Shown here in pieces: positions 3,261 to 9,480 of a stretch of 64,000 bases of DNA (position 1 is the stretch's first letter; the number at the start of each line of letters is the position of its first letter). Source of the stretch: Candidatus Omnitrophota bacterium (GTDB lineage Bacteria; Omnitrophota; Gorgyraeia; Pluralincolimonadales; Pluralincolimonadaceae). The DNA lies in NCBI GenBank assembly GCA_003141835.1, contig PLNR01000002.1, positions 14,026 through 78,025 of the forward strand, given 5' to 3'. The notes under the pieces are model-generated. The model was not told the origin of the DNA. It saw only the letters and a program-made list of their open reading frames with translations, and ran no database searches. The translations under genes and the position numbers were made by a program.

Positions 3261-3920
3261 TTATTCCTGATTTTTGTTCCCCACTGCAAACCGAGCACCT
3301 ATCTTAAAGGCTTTTTGGCAATCTTTGGAAAATACTTCTTTCCGTCTTTTTAGCTTCGCTTCAGGGTCGAACCGCGTCGCGACATACTTGGAATAGTCGT
3401 CGAACTGGTAGGTGTCAAAGCTCAAGAGCGTCTCGCTTGAACCGAAGATCCTTGTTAGGAAGTTTTCCGTGATCGCGAAACGCTGTTTATAACCTACTTC
3501 GTTCATCACCTTTTCGGTAACGCCCATCGTATAAATGAACCCTGTAGGGATCTTTTTGGGAAAAAGTGACTGCGGGGGATTGGTATACGTCAGGTACGGA
3601 AAGACCAGCCGCTCCATGAATGACTGCATCTCTCCGGTAATGCTTCCCAGGTATATGGGCGAGCCGAAGATAACGGCATCGGACTCCTCGACCCTTTTGA
3701 AGACGGGCTTAAGGACGTCATTAATTACGCATCTGCCGTAGCTTTTCCCGCCCTTTTCTTTGCAGGCAAAACAACTGATGCAGCCCTTATAGTCCAGGTC
3801 GTAGAGATGTATGAGCTCGGTCCCGGCGCCTTTCGATGCCGCGCCCTCAAGCGCCTTCTTAAGCAAGGTCGCCGTGTTCCATTCTTTTCTCGGGCTGCCG
3901 TTAAATGCGATAATTTTCAT
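3261..3920 (-). CDS. flavodoxin-fold NAD(P)H-dependent FMN reductase-like protein with a compact Cys cluster (iron-sulfur flavoprotein-like)
   Basis: MKIIAFNGSPRKEWNT..., a flavodoxin-like N-terminus. Cys motif CISCFACKEKGGKSYGRC. The start is chosen at MKII (index 43 of the track ORF). Confidence 0.6.
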   Translation of the reverse strand: MKIIAFNGSPRKEWNTATLLKKALEGAASKGAGTELIHLYDLDYKGCISCFACKEKGGKSYGRCVINDVLKPVFKRVEESDAVIFGSPIYLGSITGEMQSFMERLVFPYLTYTNPPQSLFPKKIPTGFIYTMGVTEKVMNEVGYKQRFAITENFLTRIFGSSETLLSFDTYQFDDYSKYVATRFDPEAKLKRRKEVFSKDCQKAFKIGARFAVGNKNQE

Positions 3921-3928
3921 AGATATTA

Positions 3929-4144
3929 TTAGTCCCTCCAGAAATACAGCGCCGCGGTGAGGACGATACCGATAAGGTATGTGGCCAGCGATCCCGAGAA
4001 GAAATACGGATACGCCATTAGCGCGATCCCGATAGTCATTGTGCGCCACAGCGTATTCTTTTTGCCGTAAACGAACGCGACAAAACCTATCGCGCCGAAG
4101 ATAGAACAGGCGGCAATTTTGGCGAAATTAAAATCTCCGAACAT
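3929..4144 (-). CDS. small 2-TM membrane protein (hypothetical)
   Basis: 71-aa hydrophobic ORF immediately upstream of the flavoprotein gene on the same strand. Confidence 0.4.
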   Translation of the reverse strand: MFGDFNFAKIAACSIFGAIGFVAFVYGKKNTLWRTMTIGIALMAYPYFFSGSLATYLIGIVLTAALYFWRD

Positions 4145-4257
4145 AGCAATGCCTCTATCTCGTTCTACCTACATAACTTTAGCATCATCCTATAATTATA
4201 ATAGTACACTACTTACAGGATGGCATCTTTTAAGCCTCTAACTAATAGATTGAAAAA

Positions 4258-4968
4258 TTATATTGGCGTCGATACTTTCCAACGGCCATTAAACATTGCT
4301 AACATGCTCTGTCTAACGTCTTCTCCGAGCAACACTATAAAACTTTCTTTATTACCTAAAAAATTTAAACTATTTCCAGATAACCAAAAATGTTTCTCAT
4401 CAATTATATAACGATCATGCAATTCGCTACAATTATATATTTTGATTTCCACATTAAAACCCTCGGAATTAATATGGGCTAACTGTCTTTTAATTATCCC
4501 TGGAGGTTTATTATCGAGTCGCGCTGTAAGTAGTCTAATAGAGGCGGCCTTTTTAAAATTCCTGAAAATAACATCAAGTGTACCTATATCTACGTAAGGA
4601 TCGCATATAGAAACTTCTTTATACTTATCATCCAATATTTCTTTAATATTGTTTTTGGCAGAAAAAGGCTGATTGGCAGTAATAAATTGGATTTTCTTTT
4701 TTTGAATGACCTTTGCCAGTTCGTCTCTCCCCTTCTCCATTAATTTCCAACCGTCCTTATTCTTGTTACACATACCCTTATTTTTTTGAAGGACATAATC
4801 AACGGCCTGACGTGAAGTATCAAAATGAGCTTTTTCTATAAGGAAAGACGCGATTTCGGCAGATGAATATCTATCTTTTTTAGGGGTGGCTAAATACTCA
4901 ATAGCTTTATAAGCCTTCAGAGCTAACTCATCTATTCCATTAATTATACGTACTACATTATCTTCCAT
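4258..4968 (-). CDS. island protein: N-terminal winged-helix-like region + C-terminal domain with degenerate PLD/HKD-like motif (HDRYIIDEKHFWLSGNSLN); putative nuclease-like effector
   Basis: AT-rich coding sequence. The motif HxRxxxD(x6-7)G-N-S-x-N resembles the PLD-family HxKxxxxD...GSxN but is not canonical. There is one copy only, so it would need to dimerise. Confidence 0.5.
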   Translation of the reverse strand: MEDNVVRIINGIDELALKAYKAIEYLATPKKDRYSSAEIASFLIEKAHFDTSRQAVDYVLQKNKGMCNKNKDGWKLMEKGRDELAKVIQKKKIQFITANQPFSAKNNIKEILDDKYKEVSICDPYVDIGTLDVIFRNFKKAASIRLLTARLDNKPPGIIKRQLAHINSEGFNVEIKIYNCSELHDRYIIDEKHFWLSGNSLNFLGNKESFIVLLGEDVRQSMLAMFNGRWKVSTPI

Positions 4969-4998
4969 AGCTCTATTGATACCCCAATGTTCCTCTTA

Positions 4999-5370
4999 TT
5001 ATTTTAAATTGTTAATGACTTCCCGAATCTTTAGATTAGGAATTTCATATTTAACCTTACCTATAAGTAGCCCTCTGTCTCGAAGCTTCTTAAAAAGAGG
5101 ATCTATGGTCCCTTTTTTTATGCGCGTTGCTTCATGAAACTCCTGAGCAGTGATCATTTCATCCTTAATCAGATTTTTAGCCTTAAGGAGTTTTTTTGCT
5201 AATCCATAAACCAATATTTTCTGCTCCGCTGTTAACTTTGTATCCTTAAAATAAATACTATTGTTCGCCTTCTGAATAGTTATATGAGGCCGAAGCGCCT
5301 CAACCACCTCGGATTCACTAAAGGGACCGTTATCAGAGAATAAATCAGTTATCGTTAGTTTTTCAGCCAT
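4999..5370 (-). CDS. island small winged-helix-like protein, paralog 3 of 3
   Basis: Start MAEKLT is preceded by GGAGGAGG. The C-terminal ~85 aa align with the two neighbouring genes (LAKKLL...ITAQEFHEATRIKKGTIDPLFKKLRDRGLL). Confidence 0.6.
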   Translation of the reverse strand: MAEKLTITDLFSDNGPFSESEVVEALRPHITIQKANNSIYFKDTKLTAEQKILVYGLAKKLLKAKNLIKDEMITAQEFHEATRIKKGTIDPLFKKLRDRGLLIGKVKYEIPNLKIREVINNLK

Positions 5371-5473
5371 GACCTCCTCCTTAAATTTATTATTAATTTT
5401 TTCATATATCATTGCACTTAATCAACGCCATCCCATTTGCTATAGCCCTCTAATTAAAGAATTATCTTGCGAG

Positions 5474-5860
5474 CTATTCATTTATTTTTAGTAACTGTAT
5501 TGCTTTAGTTACTGCTTCTAAGGGAATAAAGTATTCTTTGCTATCTTTTAAAACAATATATTCCTTTCCCAGTGTCGTAAGCTGAGAAGCAACGGAAACC
5601 TGTTTTGCTGAAATCATCCTGGCTAATTCTTTATAATCAATAGTTTCTTTTTCTATGAGCCCCAAAATTAGGGAGGCTTTCTTGGCAAGCAAAGAGGCTA
5701 TTATTTTCTTTTTTATGTCTAACTTATTGCCTATTTCCGTCCATTGAATTCGACCTGTTTTTTCCTCAATTTGTAATAAGGGTTGAAGTGTCTTAGTCAA
5801 AAGCTCTTTATTCAAATCTTCTGTTTTTACTAAAAGTTTCTTTAAAGGCTCATTTTCCAT
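5474..5860 (-). CDS. island small winged-helix-like protein, paralog 2 of 3
   Basis: 128 aa. The conserved core LLAKKASLILGLIEKETIDYKELARMISAKQVSVASQLTTLGKEYIVL aligns with paralogs 1 and 3. Confidence 0.6.
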   Translation of the reverse strand: MENEPLKKLLVKTEDLNKELLTKTLQPLLQIEEKTGRIQWTEIGNKLDIKKKIIASLLAKKASLILGLIEKETIDYKELARMISAKQVSVASQLTTLGKEYIVLKDSKEYFIPLEAVTKAIQLLKINE

Positions 5861-5880
5861 TTCGATTTTCCTTTCATTAT

Positions 5881-6288
5881 TTAAATTTTTAATTTTCCTC
5901 TAATTGCTCTCACAAAATCTTGCATTTTCGCCAAACGGACTTTGTAAGAGCCGCGCGTCGTAGACTCTAATAATCCTTCATCTTTTAAAACAGAGGCATA
6001 GGCGGAAATTTTTTTAGCTTCAATTCCTAATCTTTTTTCCAATTCTTTCCAAGATACCTCAGAAGAAACATTCTCGTCAATATGCGCTAATAGAAATTGG
6101 CCTAGGCAATAAAGCGCTATTTGTTCTTTATCTGTTAATCTCGAGGTAAATTCGATTCGCACTTCTCTATTCTCCGGATCTATTTTTAGAACTCCCCGGC
6201 ATAGCTGTATTAGTTCTTTTGTAAGCGCCCCCCCTGTTTCCACTAAAGTAGACTCGATTAAATTCCTAATTTCATCTTTATTATCCAT
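5881..6288 (-). CDS. island small winged-helix-like protein, paralog 1 of 3
   Basis: Start MDNKDE is preceded by AGGGAG. Core LGQFLLAHIDENVSSEVSWKELEKRLGIEAKKISAYASVLKDEGLLE. Confidence 0.6.
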   Translation of the reverse strand: MDNKDEIRNLIESTLVETGGALTKELIQLCRGVLKIDPENREVRIEFTSRLTDKEQIALYCLGQFLLAHIDENVSSEVSWKELEKRLGIEAKKISAYASVLKDEGLLESTTRGSYKVRLAKMQDFVRAIRGKLKI

Positions 6289-6507
6289 TTTCCACTCCCT
6301 TTTAAAATTAACTATACCACATATAATCAATTTGTCAAGAAAATTTTTTAAAACTACTTTCTTCGACTAAGAGTTGTTAAATTGTAAGTTGAAAAAATTT
6401 ATACTAGGGTAACAAAAAATGCCCCTCAGAAATGGTTTAGTGCCGTCTTATTTGACATCCCCTCGTGATTAAAACGGGCTATCACCTTGCAGGATGCATA
6501 GCTATTT

Positions 6508-7104
6508 TTATTTCTTTCTCCTTTTCATAAAAGCATCGAATTTCTTACTCAAAACAAATACATAATCACAAATTGCATTTGTAAAATCCAGGAGATCGCG
6601 AGAGTCTTCTCGGGATATCTTCTCTTCGGTTGCATGCGCTCCTATGTTTCTATGCAATCTTAGGGCATCTGACCACTCAAAGATCTTCTTATCAATAATT
6701 CCTTTTTTAAGTAACTCCTTTAGTCCTCCATGCAGCGCTTTTTCTTTAGTTTTATATTCTGAGCATATACATTCTAACGCCCTGCCGCACATTACAGCAC
6801 AAGCATTATATGCCTTTGATTTATAGCATAGATTTGCTTCTTCTATGGCCGCCTGAACAGGACCAGGGATACTCCAATCTAAGTATTTTTTGGGATCTGG
6901 CCATACTCTAGTTGCATCATCCCACTCCCATTTTTCTGAACTGATCTGAACAAATTCTTGACAACCAATTAAAGAACGTTTACAAGCAGGACATTCTACA
7001 AATGATATTTTATATCGAAACTCATCTTGCGGATCAACTTCTTCGTGCTGAGCTAATATTTTTGCATCTACTTTTGCTTCGCAATAATTGCATTCTATAA
7101 TCAT
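6508..7104 (-). CDS. zinc-ribbon + DUF4145 (HEPN-superfamily-like, Rx4H motif) protein; putative RNase-type toxin/abortive-infection effector
   Basis: N-terminal CNYC...CPAC zinc ribbon. The C-terminal ...ALECICSEY...LRLHRNIGAHATEEK...NAICDYVF matches the DUF4145 pattern with R-N-I-G-A-H (Rx4H). The start MIIECNYC is preceded by GGAGGG, and a TATAAT-like -10 lies upstream. Confidence 0.6.
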   Translation of the reverse strand: MIIECNYCEAKVDAKILAQHEEVDPQDEFRYKISFVECPACKRSLIGCQEFVQISSEKWEWDDATRVWPDPKKYLDWSIPGPVQAAIEEANLCYKSKAYNACAVMCGRALECICSEYKTKEKALHGGLKELLKKGIIDKKIFEWSDALRLHRNIGAHATEEKISREDSRDLLDFTNAICDYVFVLSKKFDAFMKRRKK

Positions 7105-7122
7105 ATTTCCCTCCGTTACATT

Positions 7123-7151
7123 ATTATACTCTTTGTGCACTTATCTGCGAA
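7123..7151 (-). promoter_or_regulatory. candidate sigma70-type promoter for the DUF4145 gene (-35 TTCGCA, 17-nt spacer, -10 TATAAT)
   Basis: The minus-strand sequence TTCGCAgataagtgcacaaagagTATAATaatgtaacGGAGGGaaatATG was read directly. Confidence 0.3.
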
Positions 7152-7344
7152 TCGAGAATACGTTATTCTTCCCCATTTAAAGACAATAAAAAGCCATAAC
7201 TGATTATTTATCAAGTTATGGCTTCATCTGGTGCGTAACCAGTCGTTTTGATGCTTCATTCCTTGTCTAGACGCTCGAAATTAATATAATAATTTCGAGC
7301 AGACAAGGGATGATTCATTACTCCCTAAAATATTGAGGAATTCA

Positions 7345-7423
7345 TGGCGAGCCCGGAGGGATTTGAACCCTCGGTCTTCAGATCGACAATCTGACGTGCT
7401 AGACCAGACTGCACCACGGGCCC
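7345..7423 (-). tRNA. tRNA-Asp (anticodon GUC), CCA encoded
   Basis: The reverse complement folds as a cloverleaf: acceptor GGGCCCG/CGGGCUC (one G-U pair), D-stem GUGC/GCAC, anticodon stem UCAGA/UCUGA with loop UUGUCGA, T-arm GAGGG-UUCAAAU-CCCUC, discriminator G, then CCA. Confidence 0.8.
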
Positions 7424-7438
7424 GCGTATATTTCAGAA

Positions 7439-7515
7439 TGGTGGGCGCTAGAGGACTTGAACCTCTGACCTGTAGAATGTAAATCTACCGCTCTAACCAG
7501 CTGAGCCAAGCGCCC
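7439..7515 (-). tRNA. tRNA-Val (anticodon UAC), CCA encoded
   Basis: The reverse complement folds as acceptor GGGCGCU/AGCGCCC, D-arm GCUC-AGCUGGUUA-GAGC, anticodon stem GUAGA/UCUAC with loop UUUACAU, and T-arm AGAGG-UUCAAGU-CCUCU, then ACCA. Confidence 0.8.
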
Positions 7516-8185
7516 CTATATCCGACCACTTCTTCATGCCTTCGATCCAACCTTTTATCCTGCATTGAAGACGTGTATCGGAAATCACTATCTTAAATGT
7601 TCCTAGCGGCAGTGTATCTCTTTTGTTTTTGCTTGCCCTGCTGACGGCTAGATGCGCTTTATGAAATTGGTCTAAAGGTATGCCGCTGATTTGTGACCAA
7701 AATTTTTCGGCTTTTTCTTTATTTAAGTGCGGATGGATATGAACTCCACCGCGAAATTTAGCATCGTTTACTTTACAGATATCTTTAAAAAATTTCATCA
7801 TCAAGCGCACCATATGCGGGTCTGAATTAGTGAAAATTACCGTATTATTTCCTGCTTTCGACCCTTCTCCCCAATATAGCGCGCTGCCGACCGCTTTTAA
7901 GAGAGTATTCGAACATTCCGATGGGATTTCCTTGGTCGCGGAATTTTTAATATCTTTCCGGATTTTTCCCCACTTTTGCTTGGGGCTATTCGGGTGGTTC
8001 GCCGCAACTGCTCTTCCCTTATCCTGGTTCGATTTAAGCTTAGCTATCTGATCTTCGGTAAGGGGGATATCTTCAATCCACCTGCTGACAGCACCTTTCG
8101 AGCATTTGACGCGTTTCGTTATGGCTCGAAGCGACCAACCTTGCCTGCGAAGCTCTCTTGCAAGCTTTCTTTCTTCTGCTTTCAT
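7493..8185 (-). CDS. HTH-domain protein with LAGLIDADG-like motif (ALYWGEGSK); possible homing-endonuclease-like or DNA-binding protein
   Basis: N-terminal helix-turn-helix (LARELRRQGWSLRAITKRVKCSKGAVSRWI). The motif LLKAVGSALYWGEGSKAGNNTVIFTNSD resembles a LAGLIDADG block. The 3' end overlaps tRNA-Val by 23 nt. Confidence 0.4.
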   Translation of the reverse strand: MKAEERKLARELRRQGWSLRAITKRVKCSKGAVSRWIEDIPLTEDQIAKLKSNQDKGRAVAANHPNSPKQKWGKIRKDIKNSATKEIPSECSNTLLKAVGSALYWGEGSKAGNNTVIFTNSDPHMVRLMMKFFKDICKVNDAKFRGGVHIHPHLNKEKAEKFWSQISGIPLDQFHKAHLAVSRASKNKRDTLPLGTFKIVISDTRLQCRIKGWIEGMKKWSDIGALGSAG

Positions 8186-8343
8186 TAGCGAACCTCAATG
8201 TTTTGAACTAATTACCAACATTACACCGGTTCGCTATTGTCAAGGAGCTATCCGTCTGGAAAGCCAAGCGGTGAGTGTATAAATTACCATAATTCCCAGG
8301 GGGTGTCAACCCCGCACTTTTGACAAAGTGCGGGACTTCGGCG

Positions 8344-9480
8344 CTACGCGCCTTGCCGCAATATCTTGTATGATTCCGCCGCCTTCAAACGCTTGCCTAT
8401 CGGCGGGTGGTCGTAGAGGAATATCTCGATGAGCCGGTTCGGCTCCCTGTCGGCGAGGTTCTGGTCGCCGAGCTTGCCCATCATCGAGATGAAAGCATCC
8501 GGATTACCTATCATTTCGAGGGCAAAACGGTCCGCCTCCCGCTCGAATTTCCTGCTCAGGCCGTTCTGGACCGGCATCATTATTAGCGCGAAGAAGAAAA
8601 ATATCAGTAAAAGGAACGGGAACCCCGCCAGGTCGGATACCCCGCGCAGGTTCAGGCGCCACGAGAGGGCGTTGAAGACCAGGCTCGCTATATAGAACCC
8701 GATGAAGTTCGCCGCCGCGCCGAATACAAGCAGCTTCATTATATGGCCCTTCTTGTGGTGCCCCAGCTCGTGGGCGAGGACCGCTTCTATCTCGTCGTGG
8801 CTGTATTCCTTGAGCATCGTATCGCCCAAGAGTACCCTCCTCGTCTTCCCGAGGCCTGCCAAAGCCGCGTTCGCCTTGACCGTCTTCTTGCTCAGGTCTA
8901 TTTCGAAGACGCCGTTGACCTTCGAGCCGCATTTCTCCGCGAGGTTCATCAGGCGCGCGCGCAGGTCATCGTCGGCAAGCGGTTTTACCTTGAAAAAAAG
9001 CGGCAGGATGACGACCGGGGCTACCCTGCTCAAGACTATCGTGAAGATTATCCAGAAGATGGCGGTCCATATCCACCACGTCGCGGCGAAATTCCGCAGG
9101 AAGAGGTAAAGCACCTGGATGAGGATGAAGAATATCGTCCCGCCGACTAGCAATTTCTTGGAATAATCGAGGAGCCACCCGGAGAACGCCTGCGTCGAGA
9201 GCGAGAATTTTTTTTCCAGCGAGAAACCCTGGTACATATCAAGGGTGAACGTCACGGCCGCGTATACCGCCGCGAATACGAGGAAATAGACGGTAGTTTG
9301 GACCCACGGGTTGCGCGAGGAAGCCTCGGCAAAATTGCGTATCCACACGGACGGGCCCTGCGTGGCCATTATATAGAGGAACAAAAGCGTCAGGACCAGC
9401 TCGACGCCGAACAGGATGTTCTTTATCTGCGAGTATTTTTTCGCCTCGCCTGACCCGCTTCCTGAAAACCGTTCTATCAT
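8344..9480 (-). CDS. M48-family zinc metalloprotease (Ste24/HtpX-like membrane protease)
   Basis: Multi-TM N-terminus, HELGHH (HExxH), and a C-terminal EREADRFA region typical of M48. Confidence 0.75.
   Translation of the reverse strand: MIERFSGSGSGEAKKYSQIKNILFGVELVLTLLFLYIMATQGPSVWIRNFAEASSRNPWVQTTVYFLVFAAVYAAVTFTLDMYQGFSLEKKFSLSTQAFSGWLLDYSKKLLVGGTIFFILIQVLYLFLRNFAATWWIWTAIFWIIFTIVLSRVAPVVILPLFFKVKPLADDDLRARLMNLAEKCGSKVNGVFEIDLSKKTVKANAALAGLGKTRRVLLGDTMLKEYSHDEIEAVLAHELGHHKKGHIMKLLVFGAAANFIGFYIASLVFNALSWRLNLRGVSDLAGFPFLLLIFFFFALIMMPVQNGLSRKFEREADRFALEMIGNPDAFISMMGKLGDQNLADREPNRLIEIFLYDHPPIGKRLKAAESYKILRQGA

Follow-up and report, generated by a model that had tools for sequence, protein, structure and literature searches.

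What does a small protein do that couples a winged helix to a phospholipase D (PLD) fold and is encoded behind a row of other winged-helix genes in a low-GC islet? The question is raised by a gene that we call C, an open reading frame (ORF) on contig PLNR01000002.1 of a Candidatus Omnitrophota bacterium (assembly GCA_003141835.1). We analysed a stretch of 64,000 nucleotides of this contig (positions 14,026 to 78,025), referred to here as the window, and all coordinates given below are positions within it. A preliminary description of this DNA had read the product of C as an island protein with a degenerate HKD motif, and possibly a divergent PLD-type nuclease. Our analysis suggests that C is probably an uncharacterised restriction-like nuclease. 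In its full form, to which we give a probability of roughly 50%, our reading makes C a dimeric phosphodiesterase of the PLD type, targeted to DNA and predicted to serve as a restriction-like effector under the control of winged-helix partners. The gene and its domains and motifs are as follows.

4258..4968, minus strand: gene C, 236 amino acids (aa), ATG-start ORF encoding a winged-helix and PLD(HDR)-fold protein
4705..4968, minus strand: residues 1-88, winged-helix DNA-binding domain and linker helix (AlphaFold2 model with DSSP; Foldseek matches to TrmBL2/TrmB)
4276..4692, minus strand: residues 93-231, PLD-fold domain (AlphaFold2, Foldseek, hhalign, and PADLOC and NCBIfam hidden Markov models, HMMs)
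4594..4605, minus strand: C-D123-P-Y motif directly after strand β2, the second half of the predicted active site (conservation; alignment with EDPY of MITD1)
4363..4419, minus strand: H184-D-R186-Y … G198-N-S200-L-N202, an HDR variant of the HKD motif around β5/β6

The ORF flagged at 4258-4968 is real, fitting these coordinates exactly on the minus strand with an ATG start and 236 codons for amino acids. A protein identical to it has also been gene-called on public metagenome contigs (P0001), and at least 196 close homologues have the same length. More widely, 1958 clusters at 50% identity match the C profile at E ≤ 1e-3, nearly all of them 235-275 aa long.

An AlphaFold2 model of C, built from a 34-sequence alignment, has a mean pLDDT (predicted local distance difference test score) of 89.9 and shows two domains. 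The N-terminal ~80 aa, which the preliminary description had thought winged-helix-like, are modelled as an α-β-α-α-β-β arrangement extending over ~88 aa, with helices at residues 15-26, 36-45, 53-62 and 78-88, a strand residue at 34, and a hairpin of strands 67-70 and 73-76. Foldseek matches this region, as part of full-length alignments, to the archaeal proteins TrmBL2 and TrmB. The C-terminal ~140 aa (residues 93-231) adopt the PLD α/β sandwich in the order β-α-β-α-β-α-β-β-β-β-α, and Foldseek returns Nuc, Zucchini, NucT, SauUSI, PLD3, Tdp1, NgoAVII and MITD1 with a probability of 1.00 (including structures 1byr, 4ggj, 6ehi and 7clg). Among these and further matches, human MITD1 (2ymb) has an E-value of 1.5e-6 and, at 18%, the highest identity; Zucchini follows at E 6.5e-6, FAM83 at E 1e-5, and Nuc (1byr) at E 1.1e-5, with a template-modelling (TM) score of 0.65 on the target. 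A viral structure library likewise gave a poxvirus envelope lipase, a NucT-like nuclease and other PLD-like proteins, again at a Foldseek probability of 1.00.

Homology to PLD profile HMMs is present and weak: PLDc_2 matches C at E 0.027, MIT_C at E 0.009, and DrmC at E 1e-3, and PLDc_2 reaches E ≤ 0.01 in eight of 50 C relatives (best 8e-5). As the predicted structure is a PLD sandwich and HMMs of that superfamily do match, if weakly, the PLD assignment withstood both checks that the preliminary description had named for it, structure prediction and HMM homology. A search of Protein Data Bank (PDB) sequences with the single C protein found no match, and a HMMER search of the same sequences with the family profile gave only chance matches and did not retrieve 2ymb. 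The solved relatives of C are therefore visible only by fold or by profile-profile comparison.

The peptide HDRYIIDEKHFWLSGNSLN comprises residues 184-202 of C (nucleotides 4363-4419, minus strand), and the codons for H184, D185 and R186 were confirmed in the sequence. The preliminary description had compared it with the motif HxK(x4)D(x6)GSxN, noting a change of K to R and one-residue shifts, and this was accurate: in a weak hhalign alignment with Nuc (1byr; E 0.01), H184 pairs with H94, R186 with K96, G198 with G108, S200 with S109, N202 with N111, and E208 with E122, with one residue inserted before S200. Relative to the canonical motif HxK(x)4D(x)6G(G/S)xN, His and Gly are kept, Lys becomes an invariant Arg, and the last element is G-x-S-x-N with one residue inserted. 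A canonical HKD enzyme was rejected, as C failed the test for that motif.

The word "degenerate" proved mistaken. Among 34 homologues with 45-66% identity, D123, P124, T148, E169, H184, R186, Y187, W195, G198, N199, S200, N202, E208 and S209 are invariant; among 50 relatives with identities down to 22%, H184, D185, R186, G198 and W230 are still invariant, and D123, Y125, L147, T148, Y187, G205 and K207 are conserved in at least 90%. Likewise, H(D/E)RY and GxS(L/F/I)N are found in all 65 full-length non-redundant C copies from the loci that we retrieved, and xDP(Y/F) in 64-65 of the 65. The resemblance to HKD proteins is thus not a chance one, and a decayed HKD site, or a decayed pseudo-enzyme of the FAM83 type, is excluded, as H, D, R and G do not vary even among relatives at 22% identity. 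What C carries instead is a fixed HDR variant together with a conserved Asp after β2, which is the signature of the MIT_C/PB-PLD1 clade.

This clade has been recognised computationally: an acidic residue after β2 and HDR before β5 were described as the signature of Menshen PB-PLD1, MIT_C and some BrxL C-termini (PMC12065111). In the model of C, β2 spans residues 118-122 and is directly followed by D123-P-Y, and H184-D-R186 directly precede the strand at residues 187-189. Profile-profile comparison by hhalign aligned the C family with the C-terminal domain of MITD1 (sequence checked against 2ymb) at E 1.1e-5 and a probability of 82%, pairing ICDPY with IEDPY, LLT with LLT, LHDRY with IHDRE, and GxSL with GRGL. 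By both elements of this signature, the PLD domain of C is assigned to the MIT_C-like HDR clade that includes MITD1 and PB-PLD1.

Relatives of C are also found among proteins with a defence annotation. The PADLOC HMMs for PDC-S05, PDLC04869 and PDLC04879, match C at E 5.4e-14 and 3.5e-11, and 49 of the 50 relatives also match (best E 1e-25). On C, the match covers HMM positions 127-297 of 306, corresponding to the PLD domain and the last part of the winged helix before it; this partial coverage implies that PDC-S05 proteins have ~120 additional N-terminal residues. The NCBIfam model VPA1262_N_dom (NF040700) matches C at E 2.3e-16, with its positions 293-465 of 478 aligned to residues 78-219, and matches 41 of the 50 relatives. 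PADLOC NsnC (E 7.5e-5; 11 of 50 relatives) and DrmC (4 of 50) give weaker matches. Both main relatives have been tested against phages: a PDC-S05 representative in Escherichia coli gave ~1000-fold protection against T7 and T5 and also protected against T4 (preprint 10.1101/2024.09.26.614923), and VPA1262 proteins, renamed "Juno", protected more than 100-fold against T4, BASEL_35, BASEL_45 and λ-vir (preprint 10.64898/2026.08.01.741415). PDC-S05 and VPA1262/Juno are sister families that share the PLD domain with C. Window C itself is not a member of VPA1262/Juno by that family's own threshold, as it scores 59.6 bits against a cutoff of 80, aligns with only part of the N-domain, and is only 236 aa long; with PDC-S05, its similarity extends over part of the model.

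The preliminary description had likened C to defence nucleases of the BfiI or Nuc type, but C is not a stand-alone enzyme of that kind. It is the last gene of a conserved winged-helix cassette, and in the window it is the last of four co-oriented genes, A1-A2-A3-C, separated by gaps of 20, 103 and 30 nt. The partner genes and the promoter-like site upstream of them are as follows.

4999..5370, minus strand: A3, 123 aa, MarR-like winged-helix partner, 30 nt upstream of C; the ORF extends to 5412
5474..5860, minus strand: A2, 128 aa, paralogue of A3 (hhalign)
5881..6288, minus strand: A1, 135 aa, divergent paralogue of A3 (hhalign); the TTG-start ORF extends to 6330
6311..6338, minus strand: sigma-70-like promoter match TTGACA-16-TATAGT with TG, 11/12, the best in the region and just upstream of A1

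A3 has 51 homologues, all unnamed; its AlphaFold2 model (pLDDT 86.4) matches MarR/ZitR/AspA-type winged helices in Foldseek. By hhalign, A2 matches the A-family profile with a probability of 96.5% (E 9e-10), and A1 with 77% (E 2e-5), A1 also giving weak matches to MarR_2 and ArsR winged helices. An A-family gene lies upstream of C in most related loci. An N-terminal peptide of the A family, DLFSDxGPFxE, hardly varies, yet the confidence of its model is low (pLDDT ~68), and it is absent from A1 and A2 of the window. Because strong conservation combined with a low-confidence model is the typical pattern of such segments, this peptide is possibly a short protein-binding motif that may contact C. 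The site at 6311..6338 is likely the operon promoter, a call made by consensus match in a region where promoter-like sites are no commoner than in shuffled sequence. Directly upstream of it lies a 17-nt inverted repeat (6341-6357/6384-6400, 82% complementary, 26 nt apart), which is a candidate operator for the winged-helix proteins.

To place this operon among its relatives, we collected 101 loci, reduced them to 70 non-redundant C genes, and classified the genes with HMMs of A, of B (a second partner, of ~138 aa), and of the N- and C-terminal domains of C. Genes in the related loci were called naively as the longest ORF, and their starts are therefore approximate. Among the 49 non-redundant loci with at least 900 nt upstream, the window included, the arrangements are as follows.

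A + B + C: 26 of 49 loci, the commonest form
B-like gene + C: 7 of 49
A + C: 6 of 49
other co-oriented upstream genes, 74-231 aa (four of them 223-231 aa): 6 of 49
a partner carrying C's own winged helix + C: 3 of 49
three A genes, no B: 1 of 49, the window alone

In 44 of the 49 loci, a gene lies directly upstream of C within 40 nt, with a median gap of -1 nt, and the PLD domain is the sole candidate enzyme within the cassette. Read from its sequence, B appears to consist of an N-terminal coiled coil followed by a winged helix. With hhalign, we found no relationship of the A family to either the winged helix of C or B, and the comparison of B with the winged helix of C was weakly suggestive (E 0.004, probability 8.7%). 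Several B proteins match the HMM of the N-terminal domain of C (hmmsearch limit E 1e-3), and in one locus (L012) a 185-aa partner has a C-terminal domain homologous to the N-terminal winged helix of C (hhalign probability 97.4%). In five loci (L014, L065, L076, L077, and L081), a gap of ~300-430 nt separates A and C at the usual position of B; the C ORF is 259 aa in L014 and was called longer, at 272-274 aa, in the other four, and the gap in these loci may hold a degraded or mis-called B gene.

The genes around the cassette also point to DNA modification and defence. Of 137 proteins of at least 150 aa encoded within 3 kb of C loci and compared with Pfam, DNA methyltransferases are the commonest (21/137, ~15%), comprising N6_N4_Mtase (12/137), N6_Mtase/Eco57I (6/137), and D12 (3/137) families; ResIII and serine recombinase domains were each found in 4/137. 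Methylases generally account for well under 1% of prokaryotic genes. A methyltransferase lies directly downstream of C in 10 of the 49 loci with at least 800 nt downstream, six times on the strand of C, with gaps of 2-106 nt. In five loci, it follows C on the same strand after 2-55 nt (L041 1852-2868, L054 2886-3869, L060 1548-2534, L012 6736-9381, and L021 1991-3952), the types represented being β-class N6_N4 (DPPY near the N-terminus), a fused double methylase, and a pair of M and S genes; these arrangements look like complete operons of the restriction-modification (R-M) type. At least three unrelated classes are represented among the neighbouring methylases, several of which are self-contained MmeI-like or type III systems that bring a nuclease of their own, and the partner proteins are 86% identical between a locus with a methylase (L012) and one without (L019).

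The distribution of the family is sporadic, with members in 11 of 185,579 species genomes (Gammaproteobacteria, Planctomycetales, Patescibacteria, and Bacteriovorax), and the mobile context among its loci includes serine recombinases, a Y1 transposase, and insertion beside a tRNA gene. The sole plasmid match, a distant homologue, is flanked by an AIPR gene, a type I R-M system, and a RES-Xre pair. A phage origin was rejected, as no C homologue was found in IMG/VR contigs or GenBank phages.

If these lines of evidence are combined, C may be pictured as the effector in a small, horizontally mobile cassette with a restriction-like role in defence or addiction. Its N-terminal winged helix would bind DNA, and its single-copy C-terminal PLD domain would carry an MIT_C-type site made of Asp123 after β2, His184-Asp-Arg186 before β5, and GxSxN. 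Since each chain has one motif, a dimeric active site is implied by analogy with single-HKD nucleases: two C subunits would pair their PLD domains, as Nuc, BfiI and Zucchini do, to form one composite site with two His and two Arg, and the two winged helices would place the dimer on DNA. One His would attack the phosphodiester to give a phospho-histidine intermediate, with no need for a metal ion, and Arg would hold the phosphate in place of the canonical Lys. The co-transcribed winged-helix partners, three A proteins here and usually A and B elsewhere, some of which share C's own winged helix, would control C, either through the timing of expression, as controller proteins of R-M systems do, or by direct binding of C or of its DNA sites. 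As for telling self from non-self, a neighbouring methyltransferase could shield the host at a substantial minority of loci; none was detected in the window. Taken together, the fold, the conserved motif, the clade assignment, the operon structure and the neighbourhood counts are what the analysis shows, and dimerisation, catalysis, a DNA substrate and the roles of A and B are predictions. A bolder version, which we put forward tentatively and regard as rather doubtful, is that A-B-C is an undescribed multi-component restriction-like system with an active Arg-substituted HDR site, in which the partners set target choice or immunity; in this version, the PLD-like domain of MITD1 would descend from a prokaryotic immune nuclease, as the same site is conserved in human MITD1, and would perhaps itself be an enzyme.

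Several findings weigh against C being a DNA-targeted enzyme of this kind. The catalytic motif departs from that of proven nucleases: the canonical Lys is replaced by Arg, the position equivalent to the +7 Asp of HKD is variable and often acidic, with Asp not conserved, and E208 (Nuc E122) is not universal among the 50 relatives. Enzymatic activity of the HDR-type domain has been called "an interesting hypothesis" (PMC12065111), and in the literature that we searched we found catalytic activity demonstrated for no HDR/MIT_C protein; what is known of the MITD1 domain is that it binds membranes. Both Pfam matches fall below their gathering scores (PLDc_2, profile positions 10-132 of 132, 14.7 bits against 27; MIT_C, 16.4 bits against 25), and the best full-length structural match is TrmBL2, a non-enzymatic chromatin protein. 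The phage protection reported for PDC-S05 may concern another subfamily, because the tested representative was reported to have a Virulence_RhuM domain (preprint 10.1101/2024.09.26.614923), for which there is no match in the C family. In addition, we found no DNA methyltransferase in the whole 64-kb window using phmmer with 20 neighbour-methylase seeds and a motif-IV scan, and more than half of the related loci have none within 4 kb. A classical restriction enzyme would be lethal under such conditions.

The match to TrmBL2 raises the alternative that C is a non-catalytic regulator or nucleoid protein, in which the PLD-like domain serves oligomerisation or the binding of a phosphate ligand such as a nucleotide signal, and the cassette is a group of transcription factors or a regulatory module free of addiction. 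TrmBL2 (E 1e-8) and TrmB are indeed the top Foldseek matches, aligned across both domains; each cassette gene encodes a winged-helix protein, and neither the lack of proven enzymology in the HDR clade nor the membrane binding of MITD1 speaks for catalysis. However, the TM score to TrmBL2 is only 0.40, with a root-mean-square deviation (rmsd) of ~21 Å, and Pfam TrmB and Regulator_TrmB do not match C at E ≤ 1, nor any of the 50 relatives at E ≤ 0.01, whereas profiles of PLDc_2, MIT_C, DrmC, NsnC, PDC-S05 and VPA1262 are all reached. The invariant residues fall exactly on PLD catalytic positions, a sporadic, island-borne and methylase-linked spread would be unusual for a housekeeping regulator, and a cassette of regulators would have no cargo to control. 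We consider this alternative unlikely, and membership of the TrmB family as such was rejected, the likeness being structural with no sequence-profile relationship. A further alternative, somewhat harder to defend, is that C is the endonuclease of a classical type II or IIS-like R-M system of the PLD type, like BfiI and NgoAVII, with A and B as controllers, and that the window copy has been orphaned of its methylase and is inactive or uses a distant one. The abundance of methyltransferases beside and directly downstream of C fits this, one of them being a fused double N6_N4 methylase as is typical of asymmetric sites, and NgoAVII and SauUSI are among the structural matches. Small DNA-binding genes that overlap the nuclease start also resemble operons of a controller (C) protein and a restriction endonuclease, a layout known from systems of the PvuII/Esp1396I type. 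Against it stand the lack of a detected methylase in the window and within 4 kb of most loci, the near-identity of partners in loci with and without one, and the unrelated classes of the methylases themselves, several of them self-contained; moreover, C has a winged helix, not the B3-like domain of BfiI and NgoAVII.

The same gene order could also be that of a toxin-antitoxin (TA) or addiction module without a role in phage defence, with C as toxin and, as antitoxins and auto-repressors, the winged-helix proteins encoded upstream of it. Such modules would account for small DNA-binding genes directly upstream of, and overlapping, a larger gene for a putative enzyme, for the mobile context, and for the conserved low-confidence peptide DLFSDxGPFxE as a potential protein-binding segment. 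Yet the enrichment beside R-M and other defence genes is better explained by defence islands, although TA and abortive-infection roles overlap, and a three-gene A+B+C layout is unusual for a type II TA system; on balance, we think this improbable. Finally, the PLD-like domain might bind membrane phospholipids as in human MITD1 and so give a DNA-binding protein a membrane anchor. Of the solved relatives, MITD1 is the closest in sequence, and its PLD-like domain mediates membrane association; however, we saw no membrane-related partner, signal or context at C, whose neighbours are DNA-modifying enzymes, and the residues common to C and MITD1 belong to the putative active site and to no described surface for lipid binding, so that membrane tethering seems very improbable.

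The restriction-like nuclease reading is set, in the window, within an islet with a further defence-like gene. The preliminary label of an "island protein" describes the position of C well: GC (G+C content) is 0.33-0.38 over ~4150-7340, compared with ~0.55 on both flanks. The features of the islet and its edge are as follows.

4150..7340: low-GC islet of ~3.2 kb, containing the A1-A2-A3-C operon and a RAZR-like gene (GC contrast)
6508-7104, minus strand: RAZR-like gene, 198 aa, N-terminal CxxC…CxxC zinc ribbon and DUF4145 (Pfam, E 6e-20); the GTG-start ORF extends to 7140
7345-7423, minus strand: tRNA-Asp(GTC), at the high-coordinate edge of the islet
7439-7515, minus strand: tRNA-Val(TAC), at the same edge
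7493-8185, minus strand: ORF of 230 aa with an N-terminal helix-turn-helix of the HTH_23/HTH_38 type and an intermediate GC of 0.43-0.45

The islet touches the 3' end of tRNA-Asp, and a tRNA-Asp/tRNA-Val edge is a classic insertion position. An integrase was looked for in the islet and none was found; no direct (att-type) repeat of the tRNA-Asp 3' end of at least 10 nt occurs at the opposite border (3900-4400), and the repeat families in 3800-8600 resemble chance matches. The RAZR-like product has the Rx4H motif HRNIGAH and aligns along its full length with PADLOC PD-T7-4 (E 5.9e-6), and it is likely a homologue of the ring-activated RNase anti-phage system RAZR. PD-T7-4 corresponds to that system, which was characterised in 2026 (PMC13017515). 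The gene has a promoter-like site of its own at 7151-7123 on the minus strand. Two hairpins, at ~7190-7228 and 7262-7309, lie between it and tRNA-Asp. One has an 11-bp stem, AAGCCATAACT/AGTTATGGCTT, and is probably the terminator of the tRNA operon, because a T-run follows the stem on the minus strand; the second is a longer, near-perfect palindrome centred at 7286/7287. The 3' end of the 230-aa ORF beyond overlaps tRNA-Val by 23 nt, and its segment "LYWGEGSK…" looks LAGLIDADG-like by eye, without a supporting Pfam match.

Overall, the domain type and the presumed defence role of C are already present in the literature and, as a related candidate, in PADLOC. By contrast, the 236-aa winged-helix fusion, the conserved A+B+C cassette, the methylase linkage, and the B-less version of the window with three A genes appear to be undescribed. 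The cassette, with its strong linkage to diverse methylases, suggests a compact restriction-like system that has not been described as such in defence catalogues. PLD-fold nucleases are established effectors of restriction and defence, and the HDR (MIT_C-like) branch has been noted only computationally. The C family offers a tractable test case for whether His-Asp-Arg PLD domains are enzymes, because its members are short (236 aa), abundant in metagenomes, and equipped with a clearly conserved site. The answer bears on Menshen NsnC variants, PDC-S05, Juno/VPA1262, some BrxL proteins, and human MITD1; if the bolder version of our reading is true, the "membrane-binding" PLD-like domain of the interferon-inducible MITD1 might itself be an enzyme.

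It is worth comparing C with the known systems that it most resembles. With the MIT_C domain of human MITD1 (2ymb/4a5z, PF16565), the closest solved structure by sequence identity, it shares the PLD fold, (E/C)DPY after β2, LLT at the end of β3, (I/L)HDR before β5, and GxGL/GxSL after β6. In MITD1, however, the domain is fused to an ESCRT-III-binding MIT domain and serves membrane association, whereas in C it is fused to a winged helix and belongs to a prokaryotic, methylase-linked cassette. The HDR signature is also shared with Menshen NsnC PB-PLD1, for which a role as nuclease effector in anti-phage systems has been predicted, and with the MIT_C-like C-termini of some BrxL proteins (PMC12065111). 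NsnC differs in having an inactive-PIN N-domain and in working with NsnA (ParB-DUF262) and NsnB (an ABC ATPase), none of which is found at C, whose partners are winged-helix proteins instead.

Single-HKD nucleases, including Nuc (1byr), BfiI, the NgoAVII R-protein, Zucchini, NucT and the nuclease domain of SauUSI, have the same fold as C (TM 0.53-0.65 on the target) and have the aligned His, Gly, Ser, Asn and Glu positions in common with it. BfiI, NgoAVII and SauUSI likewise fuse the PLD domain to DNA-recognition modules and act in restriction. Compared with these enzymes, C has an invariant Arg for Lys, a non-conserved +7 position, a one-residue insertion in GSxN, and an additional conserved Asp after β2, and it is accompanied by winged-helix partner genes; its own DNA-binding module is a winged helix in place of the B3-like domain of BfiI and NgoAVII. 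The archaeal regulators TrmB and TrmBL2 (5bpd, 3qph) have the same domain order as C, a winged helix followed by a PLD-like α/β domain, and differ in the relative orientation of the two, as the large rmsd indicates. TrmB domains bind sugars or act as a chromatin scaffold, and to our knowledge they are without the HDR and DPY residues. Among defence proteins, the VPA1262/Juno proteins (NF040700/NF040699) are much larger than C, act as single genes, and have regions that C lacks, and PDC-S05 likewise figures in PADLOC as a candidate system of one gene, in contrast to C, upstream of which co-oriented partner genes are always found.

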